From the sequence record FJ373894: a DNA stretch of 64,000 nt; one strand, given 5' to 3'. Of this stretch, positions 7,436 through 49,328 are shown piece by piece. The translations under genes and the position numbers were made by a program. The notes below the pieces were generated by a model, which made no database searches, was not told the origin of the DNA, and was given only the letters and a program-made list of their open reading frames with translations. Each line of letters opens with the position of its first letter. The first letter of the stretch is position 1. This DNA is from Shigella phage Ag3.

Positions 7436-7924
7436 ATGATGCTGTTAATGAGCGTTCCACAGAACAAGATGACCCCTGAAACAGAGGGTAAGAATCACTT
7501 CAACATCTACAGCCAGAGCCAAACGGAACTCGGGCGCTTCCTCTCGCATTTTGCCCATCATCCAGTGACTACCTATGAGCACGGCGTGTTCAACTCCATG
7601 GAAGGCTACTGGTATTGGCTAAAGTACAGGGATGACAACCTGCGCTTGCTCGACGGCTACGAAGCCAAGCAATATGGGCAGGGGTTGGCGGCCACTCGCA
7701 TCGCTGTCCTTGATCCATCATCCGAAGAATTCAAGCGCGACATTCTGTTTGCCACCAGCATGAAACTCCAGACAATGCCCGACCTGCTGAAGATCAGATT
7801 GGCGTACAGTCGACTCCCTCTGATCCATGCATACGTTCGGAACGGGAAATATAGTTTTCAAAACTCTATGGACTTTATCATAGACCACATTAATCGTCTC
7901 CGCATACAAGGAACTTTGAAATGA
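7436..7924 (+). CDS. NADAR-domain (YbiA-like) protein, putative ADP-ribose/N-glycoside hydrolase
   Basis: Segment IYSQSQTELGRFLSHFAHHPVTTYEHGVFNSMEGYWYWLKY matches the YbiA/NADAR core pattern (FYS.S..G.FSNF...P.....G..F.SxEhYFQ..KF) recalled from E. coli YbiA; about 162 aa, typical domain size. Confidence 0.5.
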   Translation: MMLLMSVPQNKMTPETEGKNHFNIYSQSQTELGRFLSHFAHHPVTTYEHGVFNSMEGYWYWLKYRDDNLRLLDGYEAKQYGQGLAATRIAVLDPSSEEFKRDILFATSMKLQTMPDLLKIRLAYSRLPLIHAYVRNGKYSFQNSMDFIIDHINRLRIQGTLK

Positions 7925-8551: not shown

Positions 8552-10465
8552 ATGTCTGATAAAATTGATATTGAACGCAAGTACAAGAAGCTCACGCACG
8601 TCGAGCATATCCTCCTTCGCCCAGAGCGTCATCTGGGCAGCATCCGTTCGTCTGTTGGTACGGTGTGGGTGTACGACCCAACCAAAGACCAAGTCATTTT
8701 CCGTGACAACTTTGAGTACTCCCCCGCCCTGATCAAACAGTTTGATGAAATCATCACCAACTGTGTTGACCACAGCAAGACGCCTGAGGGTAAATCCCTG
8801 ACGGAAATCACTGTCACGGTTTCCCCGATGAACGGTCAAATCATCGTTGCCGACAACGGGGGCATCCCTGTTGTGAAGCACGGTGTTACCAACGAGTGGT
8901 TGCCTGAGATGCTCTTCGGCTCCCTGTATGCAGGCAGCAACTTCAACGACGAAGACGAAGAGTACAACAACCAGAAGTCTGGTGGCCAGAACGGTGAAGG
9001 GGCTTCGCTCGTCAACGTGTTCTCCAAATGGTTCCGTGTTGCTACCAGTGATGGCAAGAAGTCTTATGCCCAGCTGTTTGAAGACAACATGAGCAAGAAG
9101 TCTAATCCGGTCATCAGCAATACGCCGAAAGAGTTCGGCACCACCATCGCCTGGATTCCTGACTATGCTCGCCTGGGTGTCAAAGGGCTTGACCAGAACA
9201 ACCTGCTGATGATCTATCGCCGCGCGTTTGAAGTGGCTGCGTGTAACCCGCGCCTGAAGGTTGTGCTGAACGGGAAGCAAATCCGGATTGACCGCTTTGG
9301 TCACTTCGTTGATTACTTCCATGCTGGTTCCGCTGTTGATGAATCTGGTGAATGGTCGGTTGCTGTAGCCCCTTCATCCGGTACGTTCATGCACGCATCA
9401 TACGTGAACTCTATTGCCACCCACATCGGTGGTCCTCACGTTGATTATGTCGCCGACCAGATCGTGGCTGCGATTCGTCCTCAGCTGGTGAAGAAGTTCA
9501 AGACCGAGCTGAAACCTGCCGTGATCAAGAACCACATGTCCTTGTTCATCGCCGCCGACATCAACAACCCGCGCTTTGACAGCCAGACCAAGGAGCGCAT
9601 GACCACTCCTGTAAGCCAGTTCGGTACGTCGTACAAACCGAGTGACAAACTCATCCGCAAGGCGCTTGAGTTCGTTATGGCTGGTCTGAGCAAAGAACTG
9701 GCTTCCCTGCGCAATGAGCAGGATGATGCTGAGTTTGAAAAGGCCAAGAAGGATATCAGCAAGCGGGATTATCGTGAGATTGAGAAGTATTACCCGGCGA
9801 CCGCCCGTGGTGACCGCAGCGGATGCTCCCTGTTGCTGACAGAGGGTGATAGCGCCTCCAATCCTATCCTGAACGCCCGTGACACCAAAAAGATCGGATT
9901 GTTCCCGCTTCGTGGTAAGTTCATCAACTGCCTGAACGCCCCGCGCACAAAGGTGATGAACAATGAAGAGTTCAAGAACCTGTGTACGATTCACGGCGGC
10001 GCAGTGCCCGGTCAGCCACTTGACATCAGCCGCTACCCACAGACTGTTGTGGCTACCGATGCGGACGATGACGGCATTCACATCCGTGGGTTGTTGATCA
10101 CCCTGTATTGCACCTACTGGCCGGAGTACGTCCGTCAGGGCAGGCTGAAGCTCCTGCGCACCCCTTACATGCGTGTATGGTGTGGTAAGGTGATGCATGA
10201 GTTCATGAACAACGCCGAGTATGAGGAGTTCCTGAAGACGCCTGATGCCAAGAAGATCACGAAGAAGAAATATCTGAAAGGTCTTGGCGGTAACAGCACT
10301 GAAGACTTCAAACGTATTCTAAACAACCTGGATGCGTATACTACGACGGTCACGCTGGACGATGGCTACCAACAGTCACTGAAGAATGGCTTCGGTGATG
10401 AGGCCGCCGATTACCGCAAAACCTGGTTTAGCGATGTTTGCCTGTTTGAAACTGAGGATGAATAA
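8552..10465 (+). CDS. DNA topoisomerase II large subunit (T4 gp39 plus gp60 equivalent, fused), GHKL ATPase plus TOPRIM
   Basis: 637 aa; GyrB-like ATPase motifs (NCVDHS, IVADNGGIP, GGQNGEGAS) and TOPRIM EGDSASNP; size fits fused gp39/gp60. Confidence 0.9.
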   Translation: MSDKIDIERKYKKLTHVEHILLRPERHLGSIRSSVGTVWVYDPTKDQVIFRDNFEYSPALIKQFDEIITNCVDHSKTPEGKSLTEITVTVSPMNGQIIVADNGGIPVVKHGVTNEWLPEMLFGSLYAGSNFNDEDEEYNNQKSGGQNGEGASLVNVFSKWFRVATSDGKKSYAQLFEDNMSKKSNPVISNTPKEFGTTIAWIPDYARLGVKGLDQNNLLMIYRRAFEVAACNPRLKVVLNGKQIRIDRFGHFVDYFHAGSAVDESGEWSVAVAPSSGTFMHASYVNSIATHIGGPHVDYVADQIVAAIRPQLVKKFKTELKPAVIKNHMSLFIAADINNPRFDSQTKERMTTPVSQFGTSYKPSDKLIRKALEFVMAGLSKELASLRNEQDDAEFEKAKKDISKRDYREIEKYYPATARGDRSGCSLLLTEGDSASNPILNARDTKKIGLFPLRGKFINCLNAPRTKVMNNEEFKNLCTIHGGAVPGQPLDISRYPQTVVATDADDDGIHIRGLLITLYCTYWPEYVRQGRLKLLRTPYMRVWCGKVMHEFMNNAEYEEFLKTPDAKKITKKKYLKGLGGNSTEDFKRILNNLDAYTTTVTLDDGYQQSLKNGFGDEAADYRKTWFSDVCLFETEDE

Positions 10466-36886: not shown

Positions 36887-37932
36887 ACCACACCTTCCAG
36901 GAACTTAGGATCAACAATCTTGCGGTCAACTGGAGAATGGGTGAGCGCAATGTTCAAACCATGATCCTGAATCCGGTTCATGTTGATGAGCTTATCGTTC
37001 AGTTTGCAGTACAGGCAGTATGCCATTTGCATGATCAAGCCACGATCAGCATCATATTCCTTCAGGTGAGCAACCAAAGTTTCCCACGGGCTACCGATAT
37101 CACAATGATGGAGCACACCAGTGAACAGATTGCGGATATGGTTCTGGTTGGTCACGTTCTTGAAGTGAATCATGGAGTTGATGAACCCAGCTTCTACTTT
37201 GGTGTCCTTCGTGATCTTGCCCAGCTGCTTCTGGCTGACTTCATTGTTGTAGTAATGAAGATTGTTGGAGAAGAGCTTGTACTGGCCGACATCAACATCC
37301 AGCACCTGAGCAATCACTTCCTGAAGAATAGAGAACTCAATGAAGTTGATTGAACTCATCCCCCACAGAACATCCTGTGAGCGGTTGATGACCGTCAGGT
37401 TCAGGCGACCGTCAACGATGGCGAACAACAGAGCCAGGTTACACACCATGTCTTTAGTCTTCGCTTCGCCACTCTCGCTGAACTTCGCCAGGCCAGCATC
37501 TGAATCCAGAGCCGGATCATAGATGGTGAGGTACGCCTGACGGGTGTTTGGGTTCTTGCGCAGGCGGTTGATGACGCTATCCAGCTGGCCATGGGCGTAC
37601 AGACGCGGACCATAAGCGGCTCGCCATGTTACCCCATCATCCGAAAAGTTAGCAGCGCGAGGCAATACGCGTGACAGGAACTTTATGTCGTTGCGGCCTG
37701 ACAACACCCAGAAGGTCTCCCCAATAGCTGCGATAGCCGATGAGTTGCGACCTTCAACGGAGAGCCAGCGGTCACGAATATCGGAAACAGTGATCGTCAC
37801 ACCATCAAGGAATCGGGTGCCGTCCGTGTTGATCTCCGCGTTACCAGGGTCCGACTCAATTCCGTATTCGCGGATAGCCAAGACAGCCTGCTTCAGCATG
37901 TCATTGTTGTTAATTGCTTTGATTTCCATCAA
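36883..37932 (-). CDS. thymidylate synthase-fold pyrimidine hydroxymethylase (dUMP/dCMP hydroxymethylase-like)
   Basis: 349 aa; ThyA-superfamily motifs in order: FWVLSGRNDIKFL, catalytic Cys in DMVCNLALLF, INRSQDVLWGMSSINF, NNLHYYNN; occupies the gene-42 position near uvsX. Confidence 0.8.
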   Translation of the reverse strand: MMEIKAINNNDMLKQAVLAIREYGIESDPGNAEINTDGTRFLDGVTITVSDIRDRWLSVEGRNSSAIAAIGETFWVLSGRNDIKFLSRVLPRAANFSDDGVTWRAAYGPRLYAHGQLDSVINRLRKNPNTRQAYLTIYDPALDSDAGLAKFSESGEAKTKDMVCNLALLFAIVDGRLNLTVINRSQDVLWGMSSINFIEFSILQEVIAQVLDVDVGQYKLFSNNLHYYNNEVSQKQLGKITKDTKVEAGFINSMIHFKNVTNQNHIRNLFTGVLHHCDIGSPWETLVAHLKEYDADRGLIMQMAYCLYCKLNDKLINMNRIQDHGLNIALTHSPVDRKIVDPKFLEGVV

Positions 37933-45849: not shown

Positions 45850-46357
45850 TACTTTTCTCCAGTTCATAATCGCGCTCCACAACATATTGGTAGACACGCA
45901 TCTTAATATAGTCGGCACCACCTGCTGAAGACAGCACCCTCCATCCACTACTGAGGGCATTCATCTTATATTGACCAACCCCCTCTTGAAAATAACTTTT
46001 AATCTGTTCCAGCTTTCGCCCACGATGATAATAAGAGATGAGTTCACCGATAACAATACAATCGGGATAATGGTTGTCAAGGGTGTCAATATTGCGGTGG
46101 ACGTAGACAGGCAACACTTCTTCATCGTCGATAGGGCTGTAGTGCGGGTCTACGATGACCACCTGTAGGCCATACGACAATAAATCCTTGACACCCAGAC
46201 GACAGAACTTATAATCTTCGTGCTTCATTGCCACCTGGAGGATATTCTCTTTCTTGGCATAATCGGTCAGGAAGATAAAGAAGTCTGTGTTGGGATCGGG
46301 ATATTGTATAGACAGTTCTTTGCCTATTTCACTAAAACAAAATCCGCGCATTTTCAT
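45827..46357 (-). CDS. hypothetical protein
   Basis: 176-aa ORF diverging from the plus-strand structural genes. Confidence 0.4.
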   Translation of the reverse strand: MKMRGFCFSEIGKELSIQYPDPNTDFFIFLTDYAKKENILQVAMKHEDYKFCRLGVKDLLSYGLQVVIVDPHYSPIDDEEVLPVYVHRNIDTLDNHYPDCIVIGELISYYHRGRKLEQIKSYFQEGVGQYKMNALSSGWRVLSSAGGADYIKMRVYQYVVERDYELEKSNAKRKTR

Positions 46358-46400
46358 TCCTCGTTATAATTACTCTTACAATATACCGTGGAGATACATT

Positions 46401-47207
46401 ATGAATTTGCCATCATTGCCCAGAACAGAAAAGACATATAAAAGCGACTTTTGGCCTACTGTGATCAAATATCGCGCCTTTACTGCGGGGCAACAAACTT
46501 TATTACTTCAGGTGTCAGATCCGCAAACGCCGATTGAAGAACGCGCGGCCATGATGGAGAGCCTCTTCAGCGAATGTGTAAATGCAGGTGCGCCTTTCAG
46601 CAAACTGCCAATCGGTGTTGTTGAGGAAGTGTTCATCCGTATGCGCATGATCGCCATCGGCGAATTGATGAAGATTCGCTACAAGTGCAATAATCAGGTT
46701 GAAGAAACGATCGATCTGGGAGATGGCCAAGAAAAGCGCCAGATGGTTCCCTGTGAGCAGGAACTGACTCTGCCTATCCCGCTGAACAATGTAAAATGCA
46801 TTGCTCAGGACGGCTTCCAGGAGACGTTTGACCTGCCAGGCGGATATCACCTCAAGATGCGCCAACCTTCCTTCTCGGACGCCACGGCGCTGTCTGATGC
46901 TGCAAGTGTTGAGATGATGCTGGCCACCTTTATCGACTGTCTGTACGACGATGACGGTCAGGTGTGGAAGGTTGAGAATCCTGAAGAAATCGGCATCACT
47001 CCGGAAGAGGCTACCGAGCGCCGCCGTGTGAAAGAAGCGTTTGTTGGGTGGGTGAAGGATAACATCGAATCAGATGTCATCGACAGCATTACGAAGAACT
47101 TCTTCCACAAAATACCGCGCATCCACTACAAGAGTTCAATCAAGTGTCCGAAGTGTGGTAAGGAACACAAGATCGAATTCAATAGCATTAATGAAATTTT
47201 CATCTAA
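46401..47207 (+). CDS. putative structural/baseplate-associated protein with C-terminal zinc ribbon
   Basis: 268 aa from ATG 46401 (GGAGA upstream); C-terminal CPKCGKEH; directly upstream of the gp5-like gene. Confidence 0.3.
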   Translation: MNLPSLPRTEKTYKSDFWPTVIKYRAFTAGQQTLLLQVSDPQTPIEERAAMMESLFSECVNAGAPFSKLPIGVVEEVFIRMRMIAIGELMKIRYKCNNQVEETIDLGDGQEKRQMVPCEQELTLPIPLNNVKCIAQDGFQETFDLPGGYHLKMRQPSFSDATALSDAASVEMMLATFIDCLYDDDGQVWKVENPEEIGITPEEATERRRVKEAFVGWVKDNIESDVIDSITKNFFHKIPRIHYKSSIKCPKCGKEHKIEFNSINEIFI

Positions 47208-47356
47208 TGTTTGAAACTGATTTACTATCCTACTTCGTGATGTGTGATGAATTGAAGTTACACGGCTATAGCATATTTGAAATCAACGAGTCGATGCCGT
47301 GGCATCTTGACTTGTTAACCGAAGCCCTCAAGGTCAGGTTGTCTAAGAAACAGTAA
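47207..47356 (+). CDS. possible 49-aa protein
   Basis: ATG overlaps upstream stop (TAATG); ends 1 nt before a strong terminator; not in ORF track. Confidence 0.25.
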   Translation: MFETDLLSYFVMCDELKLHGYSIFEINESMPWHLDLLTEALKVRLSKKQ

Positions 47357-47380
47357 TCCCGCTTCGGCGGGATTTTTATT
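47356..47380 (+). terminator. intrinsic terminator
   Basis: ATCCCGC-TTCG-GCGGGAT hairpin (UUCG loop) followed by TTTTTATT. Confidence 0.65.
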
Positions 47381-47426
47381 GGCTTAACTGTAAAACAGGT
47401 TAACGCGTGCTCTCTTTACCTGAAAT

Positions 47427-47435
47427 TGTTATAAT
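47427..47435 (+). promoter_or_regulatory. extended -10 promoter candidate (TGtTATAAT)
   Basis: TG-n-TATAAT on plus strand within the 360-bp non-coding stretch upstream of the gp5-like gene. Confidence 0.35.
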
Positions 47436-47717
47436 GGGCTTGTTCCTGAGTCATTTGTTGGGGATCGTCTATTTTGAATCAGATTGTCAGTAAAATACCA
47501 TTTTTCAAGGAGTGTTCTGAGGTGTACAGTTATTGCCTCGCTCTTATGCCTCCATGGCATTGGAATGGTGCTGCCTGCATAAGGCGGTGTGATGAGCGAA
47601 GCGAATAGGATCGAATAACAAATAAAATGAACGGAAGCAGAGCTTCCTATAGTATATAAGGCAAAATCCGCTGCGCATAAATACCTTCAAATCCTTGTTT
47701 GACAACCGGAACTCAAT

Positions 47718-49328
47718 ATGTTAGACAATATGAGATGGTTTTATGGCACCGTTGAAGATGTCAACGATCCAGACCAAAACGGGCGCGTCGCCGTCCGCAT
47801 CTATGGCGTCCACACTGATGACACCGTCCTCCTGCCTACGGACAAACTCCCATGGGCGAAGGTGCTGATGCCTGCTTCAAACGCCTCCTCTGCTGGTTTA
47901 GGTTGGTCTCCAACGGGTATCATTCCTGGCACTGAGGTTATGGGGTTCGCCCTTGACGAAGCATACCAGAACCTGCGTATCACTTGGACTTGGCCTGGGG
48001 CAAATCCCACTGATGGAGCTGACACGAATCCGCTGGCTCTCGGACAGGTCGTTCAATCTGTAGAACGTCAGGCGTACAACGCTGTCACTGACGTTCCTGT
48101 GAAACAAGAAGACGAACCACAACCAGATCCACAACCACCTGTTGGCGGGTATGATCCTGAAAAATGGATGACCATCGCTCGCGGCGAGCTGGGTGTCAAG
48201 GAGTACGCCGGAAAGTTCAACAACAACCCGCGCATTATAGAATATCACAAGACAACCTCCCTTGGCGCTTCTGAAGATGAAGTGTCATGGTGTGCGGCGT
48301 TCGTGGGCTGGGTTATGTTGCAGGCTGGATACACGTCTACGCGCTCCGCTCTTGCCCGATCTTACCTTACATGGGGTAGTGCACTGTCAGCACCACAATA
48401 TGGTGCTATCGTAGTCTTCCGGCGCGGTAACAACCCTACATTTGGACACGTGGCGTTTGTACAGAAGTTCGATGCAAACTATGTCTGGTGTATCGGTGGC
48501 AACCAATCCGATTCAGTGAAGGTCAGCCGCTTCAGCCGTTCGTCAGTCCTGGGCTACCGCTGGCCTGGTCCGGCGAATACAGCTTCAGCCGCCCCAGCGC
48601 AACAGAACGGGAAATGGTCTGAGCCTATCCCTGATCGTACCCCAAAAGAGCAGGCAACTCCGGCTCCTACAGGGCGCGTACAGGATATTGATAACACGGG
48701 CGAAACTATGGTTCCGGCAGCGGGTGGCTCCAAGTACCCGTACAACAACGTCATGGCATCCCGAGCAGGTCACATAATGGAGGTGGACGACACTCCTGGT
48801 GGTGAGCGTCTTCATTGGATGCACATGTCCGGCTCCTACAAACAGATGCTCCCGAACGGCGACGTCGTCAACAAGTCAGTGAAGGATCATTATGACCTGA
48901 CCATGTTTGACAAGCGCTATTATGTCGGCGGGGACCACAACCTGACGGTCAAAGGAACTGAAGTGCAGCGCAAGACTGGTGAGGTCTATCACCTTCACTC
49001 CAACAACTACTCCAACGTGGTTGCAGGTACAGCGCTGATGAAATTCAGTGACCTGGCTGAGTTGCAAGCGCAGAATATTCTGCGCATCATCTGCGAGACT
49101 CTGGAGGTCGGCGGGACGTTGAAGGTTCCTAAGATTCTGGCAACAGAGATCATCGCCGACAAACTGACGGTTGCTCAGACGATTAATGGTAACATCATAT
49201 ATGCCGAAGGTGCTGGTCGCGCTTCTTCTCTGTCAGGTGCAACCCCTGCATCCCCTACGGGACCAGGTGAGATTGATATCAAGGCAGAATTAAAAGACAA
49301 TGGTGGTAATTTCGGCACCGAAGAGTAA
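47718..49328 (+). CDS. baseplate central spike/hub protein (gp5-like) with cell-wall hydrolase domain
   Basis: N-terminal OB-fold pattern WFYGTVEDVNDPDQNGRVAVRIYGVH...LPWAKV as in gp5; central CHAP/NlpC-P60-like motifs WCAAFVGWVMLQAGY, GHVAFV, GGNQSD; CATAAATA 26 nt upstream. Confidence 0.7.
   Translation: MLDNMRWFYGTVEDVNDPDQNGRVAVRIYGVHTDDTVLLPTDKLPWAKVLMPASNASSAGLGWSPTGIIPGTEVMGFALDEAYQNLRITWTWPGANPTDGADTNPLALGQVVQSVERQAYNAVTDVPVKQEDEPQPDPQPPVGGYDPEKWMTIARGELGVKEYAGKFNNNPRIIEYHKTTSLGASEDEVSWCAAFVGWVMLQAGYTSTRSALARSYLTWGSALSAPQYGAIVVFRRGNNPTFGHVAFVQKFDANYVWCIGGNQSDSVKVSRFSRSSVLGYRWPGPANTASAAPAQQNGKWSEPIPDRTPKEQATPAPTGRVQDIDNTGETMVPAAGGSKYPYNNVMASRAGHIMEVDDTPGGERLHWMHMSGSYKQMLPNGDVVNKSVKDHYDLTMFDKRYYVGGDHNLTVKGTEVQRKTGEVYHLHSNNYSNVVAGTALMKFSDLAELQAQNILRIICETLEVGGTLKVPKILATEIIADKLTVAQTINGNIIYAEGAGRASSLSGATPASPTGPGEIDIKAELKDNGGNFGTEE

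Follow-up and report, generated by a model that had tools for sequence, protein, structure and literature searches.

The putL and putR sites of phage HK022 encode antiterminator RNAs; each of the related copies follows a promoter and precedes hairpin or terminator signals as well as genes, and their adjacent conserved stem-loops act in cis in the nascent RNA. The T4 genes e, soc, 49, and I-TevI have an upstream early or middle promoter as well as a proximal late promoter, and the ribosome-binding site is hidden in the long transcripts. T4-type phages also contain promoter-early plus stem-loop (PeSL) cassettes, which are repeated intergenic units of a promoter and a stem-loop that recombine. 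The T4 origin oriE, which requires a promoter of the early type, is situated at gene 5, and active T4 origins are found near points of transcriptional divergence (PMC3016281). Here, we examine the gap of 361 bp at positions 47357 to 47717 in a stretch of 64,000 nucleotides (nt) from Shigella phage Ag3 (FJ373894), referred to as the window, which corresponds to the rIIA-proximal part of an Agtrevirus (Ackermannviridae) genome. The gap extends from the stop codon of an open reading frame (ORF) of 49 codons to the ATG of the gp5-like gene, and its centre holds a conserved element that seems to resemble phage leader or antiterminator RNAs, or origin transcripts, yet belongs to no known family tested. 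With a probability of roughly 0.45, we take the element to be a cis-acting structured RNA, a protein-binding leader or attenuator that would be made toward gp5 before the late phase and be bypassed by late transcripts.

Conservation and copies of the element

A blastn search with the gap alone yielded 274 phage records; the matches listed were all of the Ackermannviridae type and included Agtrevirus, Limestonevirus, Kuttervirus, and Taipeivirus, with the Kuttervirus matches covering positions 47502 to 47657 at 82% identity. In many records, a second site also matched. The region from 47200 to 47900 was 100% identical to Shigella phage ChubbyThor and 99.7% to 99.9% identical to MK-13, SKML-39, and P46FS4. 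The centre of the gap, from about 47490 to 47655, was conserved in every Ackermannviridae genus compared, and the conservation extended well outside the promoter motifs; the gap is therefore not a mere spacer. The alignments identify this centre as a member of a family of conserved non-coding elements in all Ackermannviridae.

Segment identities were obtained from an alignment of four genera and are given here relative to CBA120 and T751, respectively. The core (47536 to 47610) showed identities of 0.84 and 0.81, compared with 0.42 and 0.39 at the third codon positions of gp26, 0.46 and 0.48 at the third codon positions of gp5, and 0.49 and 0.39 in the linker at 47441 to 47489. Judged by these values, the flanking structural genes are less constrained than the centre of the gap.

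The core occurs in three related copies in each genome. These precede gp5, gp6 (baseplate wedge), and gp45 (sliding clamp), and every copy has the same orientation as its downstream gene. The gp6 and gp45 gaps, which were read in ChubbyThor, SFP10, 0507-KN2-1, P46FS4, CBA120, and T751, are conserved family-wide (274 and 271 records). In the LIMEstone1 record, where the copies are dispersed at about 44, 87, and 127 kb, the gp6 copy was located at 127238 to 127298 on the gp6 strand, with 82% identity over 62 nt, and a shorter version at about 86556 to 86660 on the gp45 strand represented the gp45 copy. The sequence-only reading had considered the gap unusually long, and this was borne out by the homologous gap in LIMEstone1: the gap of 362 bp upstream of the gp5 homologue and the gaps of 344 and 333 bp that hold the related copies are the longest gaps free of coding sequences in this annotated genome outside the tRNA region. 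Two more long stretches without coding sequences flank the tRNA-Met gene (128307 to 129561 and 130071 to 130860), and a weak match to the Module F region (GATCGAAGCGAATAAGTACGAATAA) was seen beside the tRNA at 129968 to 129992.

No second copy was detected within the window by blastn, motif search, or covariance model; the other two copies of this lineage lie outside it (8997 to 9260 in ChubbyThor and 36907 to 37245 in P46FS4). The covariance model R1 gave only one strong match in the window, with 82.3 bits and an E value of 1.1e-18 for a sequence that was part of its training set. The same model, which was built on the core, gave two strong matches in LIMEstone1 and nothing significant in the loci of phiMAM1, K355, and Atu_ph04. 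Every complete genome in IMG/VR contained exactly two matches to the core pattern; 11 extra contigs with this pattern were dismissed as unrelated, GC-rich chance matches. A metagenome scan with the strict core pattern yielded only two real matches, both of known types.

The order of the parts is the same in all copies, namely a -10-like hexamer TAT(T/A)AT, Module A/B, structured modules, an A/T-rich linker, and a GC hairpin. The hexamer is located about 55 to 75 nt upstream on the sense strand and is represented by TGTTATAAT in this phage, and the consensus of Module A/B across the copies consists of an A tract, four bases, TTTTC(T/A), 17 to 18 nt, and TAnnnT. In the gp5 and gp6 copies, the GC hairpin is followed by the late promoter (C/T)TAAATA and similar first transcribed bases. 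The hairpins H1 and H2 and the pseudoknot (Table 1) are missing from the gp45 copy and from the gp5 and gp6 copies of phiMAM1, which contain two G·A hairpins instead. Furthermore, the gp6 and gp45 copies carry an extra rod-like hairpin of the Module F design with two tandem-G·A internal loops.

It was also noted that the gp5 and gp6 copies in one genome share variants that differ between genomes. The loci L020 and L048 have an H2 variant in common, the gp5 copy of CBA120 carries an H2 of the gp6 type, and the gp5 and gp6 copies of phiMAM1 (L028, 1669 to 1709, and L151, about 7481 to 7521) are 97.6% identical over 41 nt. At the level of sequence, such sharing indicates gene conversion between copies that are about 83 kb apart and in inverted orientation. 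In the drafts of Salmonella phage FSL SP-063 (KC139523 and KC139524), contigs end inside gp5-type and gp6-type elements, and draft assemblies thus evidently break at the repeat.

The positions of the copies bear on the idea that they are replication origins of the R-loop type, where an early or middle promoter in the late region would produce an RNA that, once hybridised, primes the leading strand, and where the folds would shape or position the primer. The placement of T4 oriE at gene 5 and of active T4 origins near divergence points (PMC3016281) agrees with this idea, as does the annotation of repEB under the start of gene 5 in T4-type records. Besides being dispersed in the LIMEstone1 genome, the copies are at or near divergence points, with the gp6 and gp45 gaps being divergent and the gp5 gap 1.2 kb from such a point. 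The global minimum of the cumulative GC skew, at about 126 kb, adjoins the gp6 copy, but the skew tracks the direction of transcription and is hence not independent evidence. An A/T-rich stretch follows the core in every copy, and T4-like replication genes are present, including those for UvsW and RNase H. However, the T4 origins have no sequence motif in common, nor are they known to have a conserved RNA fold (PMC3016281). There are no iterons, and the region from 47300 to 47760 holds no direct-repeat family beyond one weak pair of 13 nt. Moreover, the A/T-rich stretch is only about 22 nt long (47610 to 47632) and comes after the GC-rich structured part, at least 80 nt downstream of the -10-like hexamers. 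Origins of this type are, in our view, quite unlikely.

The coding capacity of the gap was also examined. The sequence-only reading had reported ORF fragments of 19 to 28 codons only, which proved too low, since mechanical ORFs of 28, 32, and 44 codons on the plus strand and of 43 (with an ATG) and 53 codons on the minus strand were identified. Its view that there is no convincing ORF was upheld: the three longest ORFs in the gap had no match to PHROG families, and none of the ORFs keeps its frame, length, or presence across the genera compared. Because single- and two-base indels occur inside the centre of the gap, there is no shared reading frame.

A small protein would have to be either MPPWHWNGAAC... 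(20 codons from an ATG at 47546, inside the 44-codon ORF with a TTG start at 47474 to 47608) or the product of the 43-codon ORF on the minus strand (47429 to 47560). The ATG frame is open for 18 to 21 codons in the gp5 copies of three genera, and a pair of -1/+1 indels in CBA120 restores the frame. The 43-codon ORF, which lies over the conserved element, is annotated in a single record, ChubbyThor, as the hypothetical protein gp110. However, the ATG has no Shine-Dalgarno sequence in front of it, frame shifts make the C-terminal parts dissimilar, a different ATG and frame would be needed in the gp6 copy, and the whole segment is missing from phiMAM1. The substitutions that occur are the paired ones, and the minus-strand ORF is broken in Taipeivirus and phiMAM1. 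A small protein was rejected on the unconserved ORFs and the absent PHROG match and is, in our judgment, highly improbable; gp110 of ChubbyThor is probably a spurious gene call.

Searches for known RNAs gave no matches with Rfam 15 for the whole window at gathering thresholds or for the gp6 and gp45 copies at E values up to 1, and only chance-level matches centred on the terminator for the region from 47200 to 47800 at E values up to 10. Words resembling 5S rRNA (GCGAGUAGG) were rejected, as there was no Rfam 5S match. A scan for tRNAs and transfer-messenger RNAs found none, and no host copy was matched in 5,426 E. coli genomes. The element is strongly conserved and apparently undescribed.

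Structure and covariation of the core

The sequence-only reading had proposed a covariance analysis across related phages, and the base pairs were found to covary. The test of the core included 22 distinct gp5- and gp6-type cores and 18 proposed pairs, with standard pairs in 97.5% of the cells. Five pairs change on both sides, two of which are in H1, one in the pseudoknot, and two in H2. The covariation score was 0.276, compared with 0.120 in shuffles, and 0 of 500 shuffles reached the observed value; pairing in slid-partner controls did not exceed 52%.

Table 1. Features of the gap and its surroundings in the window
Feature	Position	Strand	Description
49-codon ORF	47207-47356	+	Directly 3' of the gp26-like hub gene (46287-47207)
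Intrinsic terminator of the gp26/49-codon-ORF unit	47355-47379	+	Called by terminator scan
Conserved imperfect palindrome TTAACTGTAAAACAGGTTAAC	47384-47404	.	From alignments; directly after the terminator
P1, extended -10-like TGTTATAAT	47427-47435	+	Candidate promoter of the element's RNA
Poorly conserved linker	47441-47489	+	39-49% identity to T751 and CBA120
Module A/B	47490-47530	+	A-tract, four bases, TTTTTCA, 17 nt, TACAGT
Conserved core	47544-47609	+	Delimited by covariance model R1
Hairpin H1	47546-47560	+	ATGCC / loop TCCAT / GGCAT; two pairs changed on both sides
Pseudoknot	47552-47568	+	H1 loop CCAT (47552-55) pairs with ATGG (47565-68)
Hairpin H2	47570-47588	+	GCTGCCT / loop GCATA / AGGCGGT; conserved U·G wobble
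Module F, tandem-G·A hairpin	47590-47608	+	TGAT-GA-GC-GAA-GC-GA-ATAG; kept in all copy types
A/T-rich linker	47610-47632	+	50-59% identical to other genera, yet A/T-rich in all copies
Hairpin H3	47633-47647	+	GGAAGC-AGA-GCTTCC; candidate 3' end, pause, or weak terminator
-10-like TATAGT	47648-47653	+	Directly after H3; TATAAT in Kuttervirus and Taipeivirus
gp5 late promoter CATAAATA	47676-47683	+	T4-type TATAAATA class; sole copy in the window
Short 5' untranslated region of late gp5 mRNA (putative)	47684-47717	+	From late promoter position and ATG at 47718
gp5-like gene (tail spike)	47718-49328	+	ATG at 47718

The double changes in H1 separate the two copy types, with AU and UA in the gp5 copies versus CG and AU in the gp6 copies (10 versus 12 sequences). 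All 4 pairs of the pseudoknot were paired in 100% of the cells, and an A-U pair was replaced by C-G in all 6 Taipeivirus sequences, in gp5 and gp6 copies alike. In H2, one pair has changed from CG to UA and another from UA to CG, and wobbles were observed as U·G in 20 and as G·U in 10 of the 22 sequences. The GAGC-loop-GCGA design of Module F was kept in all three copy types and in all genera; its loop sequence is free (GAA, UUCA, AAA, AUA, AAC, GUA), and in the Kuttervirus gp6 copies the loop has been enlarged to a stem of 7 bp. The rod hairpin of the gp6 and gp45 copies was 100% paired with four double changes (0 of 500 shuffles), and its outer stem is fully replaced, being CUUY/RAAG in the gp6 copies versus AUAC/GUAU in the gp45 copies.

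The folded strand was identified as the gene-sense strand, because the G·U and U·G pairs correspond to A·C mismatches on the opposite strand. The segment of 121 nt from 47535 to 47655 folds better than shuffles on the plus strand (z = -2.6).

These observations also bear on whether the gap is purely a DNA-level region of promoters and sites for DNA-binding proteins, with helices that are incidental or represent DNA hairpins or cruciforms. The promoter-like motifs at 47427-35, 47525-30, 47648-53, and 47676-83 would fit such a region, as would the conserved palindrome at 47384 to 47404, the A-tract and T-tract of Module A, which are typical of bent DNA or UP elements, and the overlap of the gp45 rod hairpin with a -10-like hexamer. 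Nevertheless, four helices and a pseudoknot show compensatory Watson-Crick changes, which would be unexpected for protein-binding sites, and the asymmetry of the wobbles favours one strand. Furthermore, free loops, one of which has grown into a longer stem, are typical of structural rather than sequence constraint, and we hold a purely DNA-level role to be improbable.

A reduced form of the structure was identified in Vibrio phage K355, the gp5 protein of which is 54% identical at the N-terminus. It carries only the hairpin GGGGU-GAGCGAAGCGA-ACCCC (L029, 1734 to 1756), the centre of which is identical to positions 47594 to 47604. The hairpin is located 39 nt upstream of the gp5 ATG, between TATAAT and the gp5 ribosome-binding site, a leader position that counts for the leader reading. 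No further copy of the hairpin was found in another 45 kb of the K355 genome. None of 70 more distant T4-like IMG/VR loci had the hairpin upstream of gp5, and it was present only in Ackermannviridae and K355. On this distribution, the tandem-G·A hairpin is the oldest and most general part of the element. Generic tandem-G·A hairpins are not enriched genome-wide (27 observed compared with 25.5 in shuffles).

Two other interpretations of single parts were considered and set aside. A kink-turn (box C/D-like UGAUGA) in Module F was rejected, since the motif is lineage-specific and the hairpin general. The similarity of H2 to type I-F repeats of clustered regularly interspaced short palindromic repeats, CTGCC...GGC(A/G)G, was judged to be due to chance, and the stem varies among genera.

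Promoter-like motifs and candidate functions

The sequence-only reading had pointed to an extended -10 element at about 47427 and to a promoter-like element near 47685. The first of these, P1, is present at 47427-35 and has the TATAAT hexamer and the upstream TG of a sigma-70 promoter, but it is not a uniformly good -10 element across genera: the hexamer is TATAAT in this phage, T751, and IME250, TATAAC in LIMEstone1, CAU_YEP3, and CBA120, and TATATG in phiMAM1. No -35 element was found at a spacing of 16 to 18 nt, where the sequence is GTGCTC, and P1 was not called by the promoter scan. In SFP10, the scan detected a comparable promoter, TTGATA-N18-TATTAT, which precedes the gp6 copy and lies on the sense strand.

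Module A/B, which has a fixed spacing and is common to the gp5, gp6, and gp45 copies, had one match in the window (at 47492) and exactly three in LIMEstone1 in a pattern search. It may be either a second weak promoter of the sigma-70 type, with a UP-like A tract, a -35 of TTTTCA, and a -10 of TAnnnT, or a part of the RNA.

The second promoter-like element was confirmed as the late promoter of gp5. It agrees with TATAAATA at 7 of 8 positions, is invariant in all genera including phiMAM1, and is annotated as a late promoter in the LIMEstone1 record. As in T4-type late promoters, a conserved TATAAATA-like box is located about 30 to 40 nt upstream of a late gene. Late promoters were previously proposed for gp5 and gp6 in phiSboM-AG3 (PMC3121705), and homologues of the late-transcription proteins gp55, gp33, and gp45 are present in relatives (cf. 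PMC3121705). Since late gp5 transcripts start downstream of the structured part, the late gp5 mRNA does not have this part as its leader. The gp5 and gp6 loci also resemble each other in the late promoter and the bases transcribed first, with positions 47676 to 47700 and the gp6 gaps sharing TAAATA(C/T)CTTCAA(A/C), and the duplicated unit therefore spans Module A through the late promoter.

A transcribed structured RNA is the best reading of the element because of the compensated fold, the strand asymmetry, the absence of coding capacity, and the promoter-like motifs upstream on the same strand. The sequence-only reading had left a choice between a small RNA, a long structured leader, and a packaging or replication cis-element; conservation and covariation favour the small RNA or leader, and nothing points to a packaging site. 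As a leader or attenuator, the element would be transcribed toward gp5 before the late phase by a host-type RNA polymerase, unmodified or in middle mode, starting at the extended -10 at 47427-35 and/or at the -10-like TACAGT at 47525-30. The product would be a folded RNA of about 110 to 205 nt, with its end or a pause at H3 (47633-47), immediately ahead of the late promoter, and the tandem-G·A hairpins of this RNA may serve as recognition sites for a protein. In this manner, the element could control whether pre-late transcription, or the translation of such transcripts, proceeds into gp5, whereas late transcripts from 47676-83 would skip it. The other copies would exert an equivalent control over gp6 and the gp45 operon, and the gp45 copy would be situated in the leader of the 45-44-62-regA operon.

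H3 has the GC-rich stem-loop of a terminator, with a 6-bp stem, 4 G-C pairs, and a loop of 3 nt. It is identical in CBA120, and in Taipeivirus it reads GGATGC...GCATCC, which represents one compensated pair.

Several findings weigh against a leader or attenuator of this kind. Neither transcript data nor any description of a transcriptome, small RNA, or repeat was found for Ackermannviridae in the literature searched. P1 lacks a -35 and reads TATAAC in three lineages. H3 has no T run on the plus strand (its tail is TATAGTATAT) and was called as terminator-like on the minus strand only, and for its equivalents in the gp6 and gp45 copies the antisense strand was likewise the only one with a terminator-like call. 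In the gp45 copy, the rod hairpin and the -10-like TAnnnT of Module B overlap at the 5' arm of the hairpin, so that the promoter and the rod helix would be mutually exclusive in this copy. No conserved pairing was observed between the element and the gp5 translation start region. With regard to the fold itself, G·T and sheared G·A pairs are compatible with DNA hairpins as well, the minus strand of the 121-nt core folds about equally well (z = -2.54), and a stretch of 224 nt is not unusually stable on the plus strand (z = -0.75) and beats shuffles on the minus strand only. Diversity is low, with four to five genera and an effective sequence number of 2.53 in the model, the independent compensatory events amount to only about 5 to 6, and gene conversion between the copies inflates the cell counts.

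The same structure and conservation would be expected if the copies were stand-alone genes for trans-acting small RNAs, each with its own promoter and a hairpin at the 3' end, that have their targets elsewhere and might, for instance, titrate an RNA-binding protein of the host or phage via the G·A hairpins and GGA-containing single strands. It fits with such genes that a GC hairpin closes each copy before the promoter of the downstream gene, that TTTTGATT follows this hairpin in the Kuttervirus-type gp6 copies, and that a baseplate hub protein (gp5), a baseplate wedge protein (gp6), and a sliding clamp (gp45) have no obvious functional link. Yet, the sense strand gave no call of a canonical terminator, a pre-late promoter is required for the gp45 operon and the candidate promoters are separated from the gene by the element, the K355 hairpin is inside the gp5 leader, and the searched literature provides no transcript evidence for small RNAs either. 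We consider trans-acting small RNAs unlikely.

A bolder proposal, doubtful in our estimation, is that the element represents a phage RNA of a new class with the machinery of transcription or replication as its target, either as a put-like RNA that reprograms the host RNA polymerase on its way into gp5, gp6, and the gp45 operon or as the structured primer RNA of three Ackermannviridae origins, with a dedicated protein docking to the tandem-G·A hairpins. If true, RNA polymerase modification or origin priming of this kind would add a new mechanism to the T4-like paradigm.

Phages of the Ackermannviridae (ViI, CBA120, LIMEstone, and relatives) have been isolated widely and are employed in biocontrol and therapy. 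The genome papers predict their promoters in silico only, and their transcription programme and replication origins have so far only been guessed from T4 consensus motifs (PMC3296691, PMC3121705). The element exceeds the adjacent structural genes in conservation, occupies three fixed loci, and occurs in a reduced form in a distant Vibrio phage, which makes it a strong candidate for a signal at the core of regulation or replication in the family. It also explains spurious calls of hypothetical proteins and breaks of draft assemblies at repeats, and with about 110 nt it is a small and concrete target for experiments.

On the upstream side of the gap, the strong terminator described in the sequence-only reading was recovered by the terminator scan. 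Its stem at 47355 to 47374 has 8 pairs, 5 of which are G-C, with a TTCG loop followed by a T run. A hairpin and a T run are present at the same site in all genera compared; the stem sequences differ. In the adjacent palindrome TTAACTGTAAAACAGGTTAAC, Agtrevirus, Limestonevirus, Kuttervirus, Taipeivirus, and phiMAM1 all preserve TGT-N4-ACAGGT, and the palindrome could represent a protein-binding site or a small hairpin.

The ATG of the 49-codon ORF overlaps the gp26 stop codon (TAATG), and the ORF matches PHROG 9633 (E = 3e-39), with a weak match to a baseplate hub assembly catalyst (phrog_634). Its conservation extends to Vibrio phage K355. The ORF is unannotated in CBA120 and Taipeivirus, where ATT takes the place of the ATG. 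The identity at its third codon positions is 0.57 to 0.65, compared with 0.39 to 0.48 in the neighbouring genes, which hints at extra constraint or an unusual initiation.

Comparison with described systems

In the gp5 copies of the Aglimvirinae, Module F reads (C/G/U)UGAUGA-GC-GAA-GC-GAA and resembles the core of a hammerhead ribozyme in having a CUGAUGA box, a short stem II, GAA, and tandem G·A pairs by the helix. In the other genera, and in the gp6 and gp45 copies, the sequence is instead UUACGAGC...GCGAGU, with core positions changed and the hairpin kept. A hammerhead was rejected, as the core is unconserved, neither stems I and III nor a cleavage site could be discerned, and there was no Rfam hammerhead match up to E = 10.

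Like the PeSL cassettes, the copies are repeated intergenic cassettes that recombine, in this case by putative gene conversion. The element differs from PeSL in its size of about 160 to 250 bp, in its covarying core of multiple helices, and in the presence of only three copies per genome at the fixed gp5, gp6, and gp45 loci.

The arrangement of an upstream pre-late promoter, here a candidate, a structured leader, and a late promoter near the gene, with late transcripts that lack the leader, is shared with the T4 genes e, soc, 49, and I-TevI. In contrast to these, conserved pairing of the element with the gp5 ribosome-binding site was not found, the conserved structure goes far beyond one sequestering hairpin in complexity, and three loci are involved.

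The element resembles putL and putR in the presence of several related copies per genome and of adjacent conserved hairpins, here H1 and H2, which covary, and it would likewise follow a promoter, here a candidate, and act in cis. It differs from them in containing a pseudoknot and tandem-G·A hairpins and in preceding late-type genes that have their own late promoter, and the likeness is one of description only.

Unlike the T4 origins, the element has a shared conserved fold and neither iterons nor recognised rep genes, whereas oriE has iterons of 12 nt and repEA/repEB. It is similar to oriE, oriF, and oriG in that a promoter of the early or middle type, here a candidate, and a non-coding transcript, here putative, are located in the late region, at the start of gene 5, with several such sites per genome near divergence points (PMC3016281).

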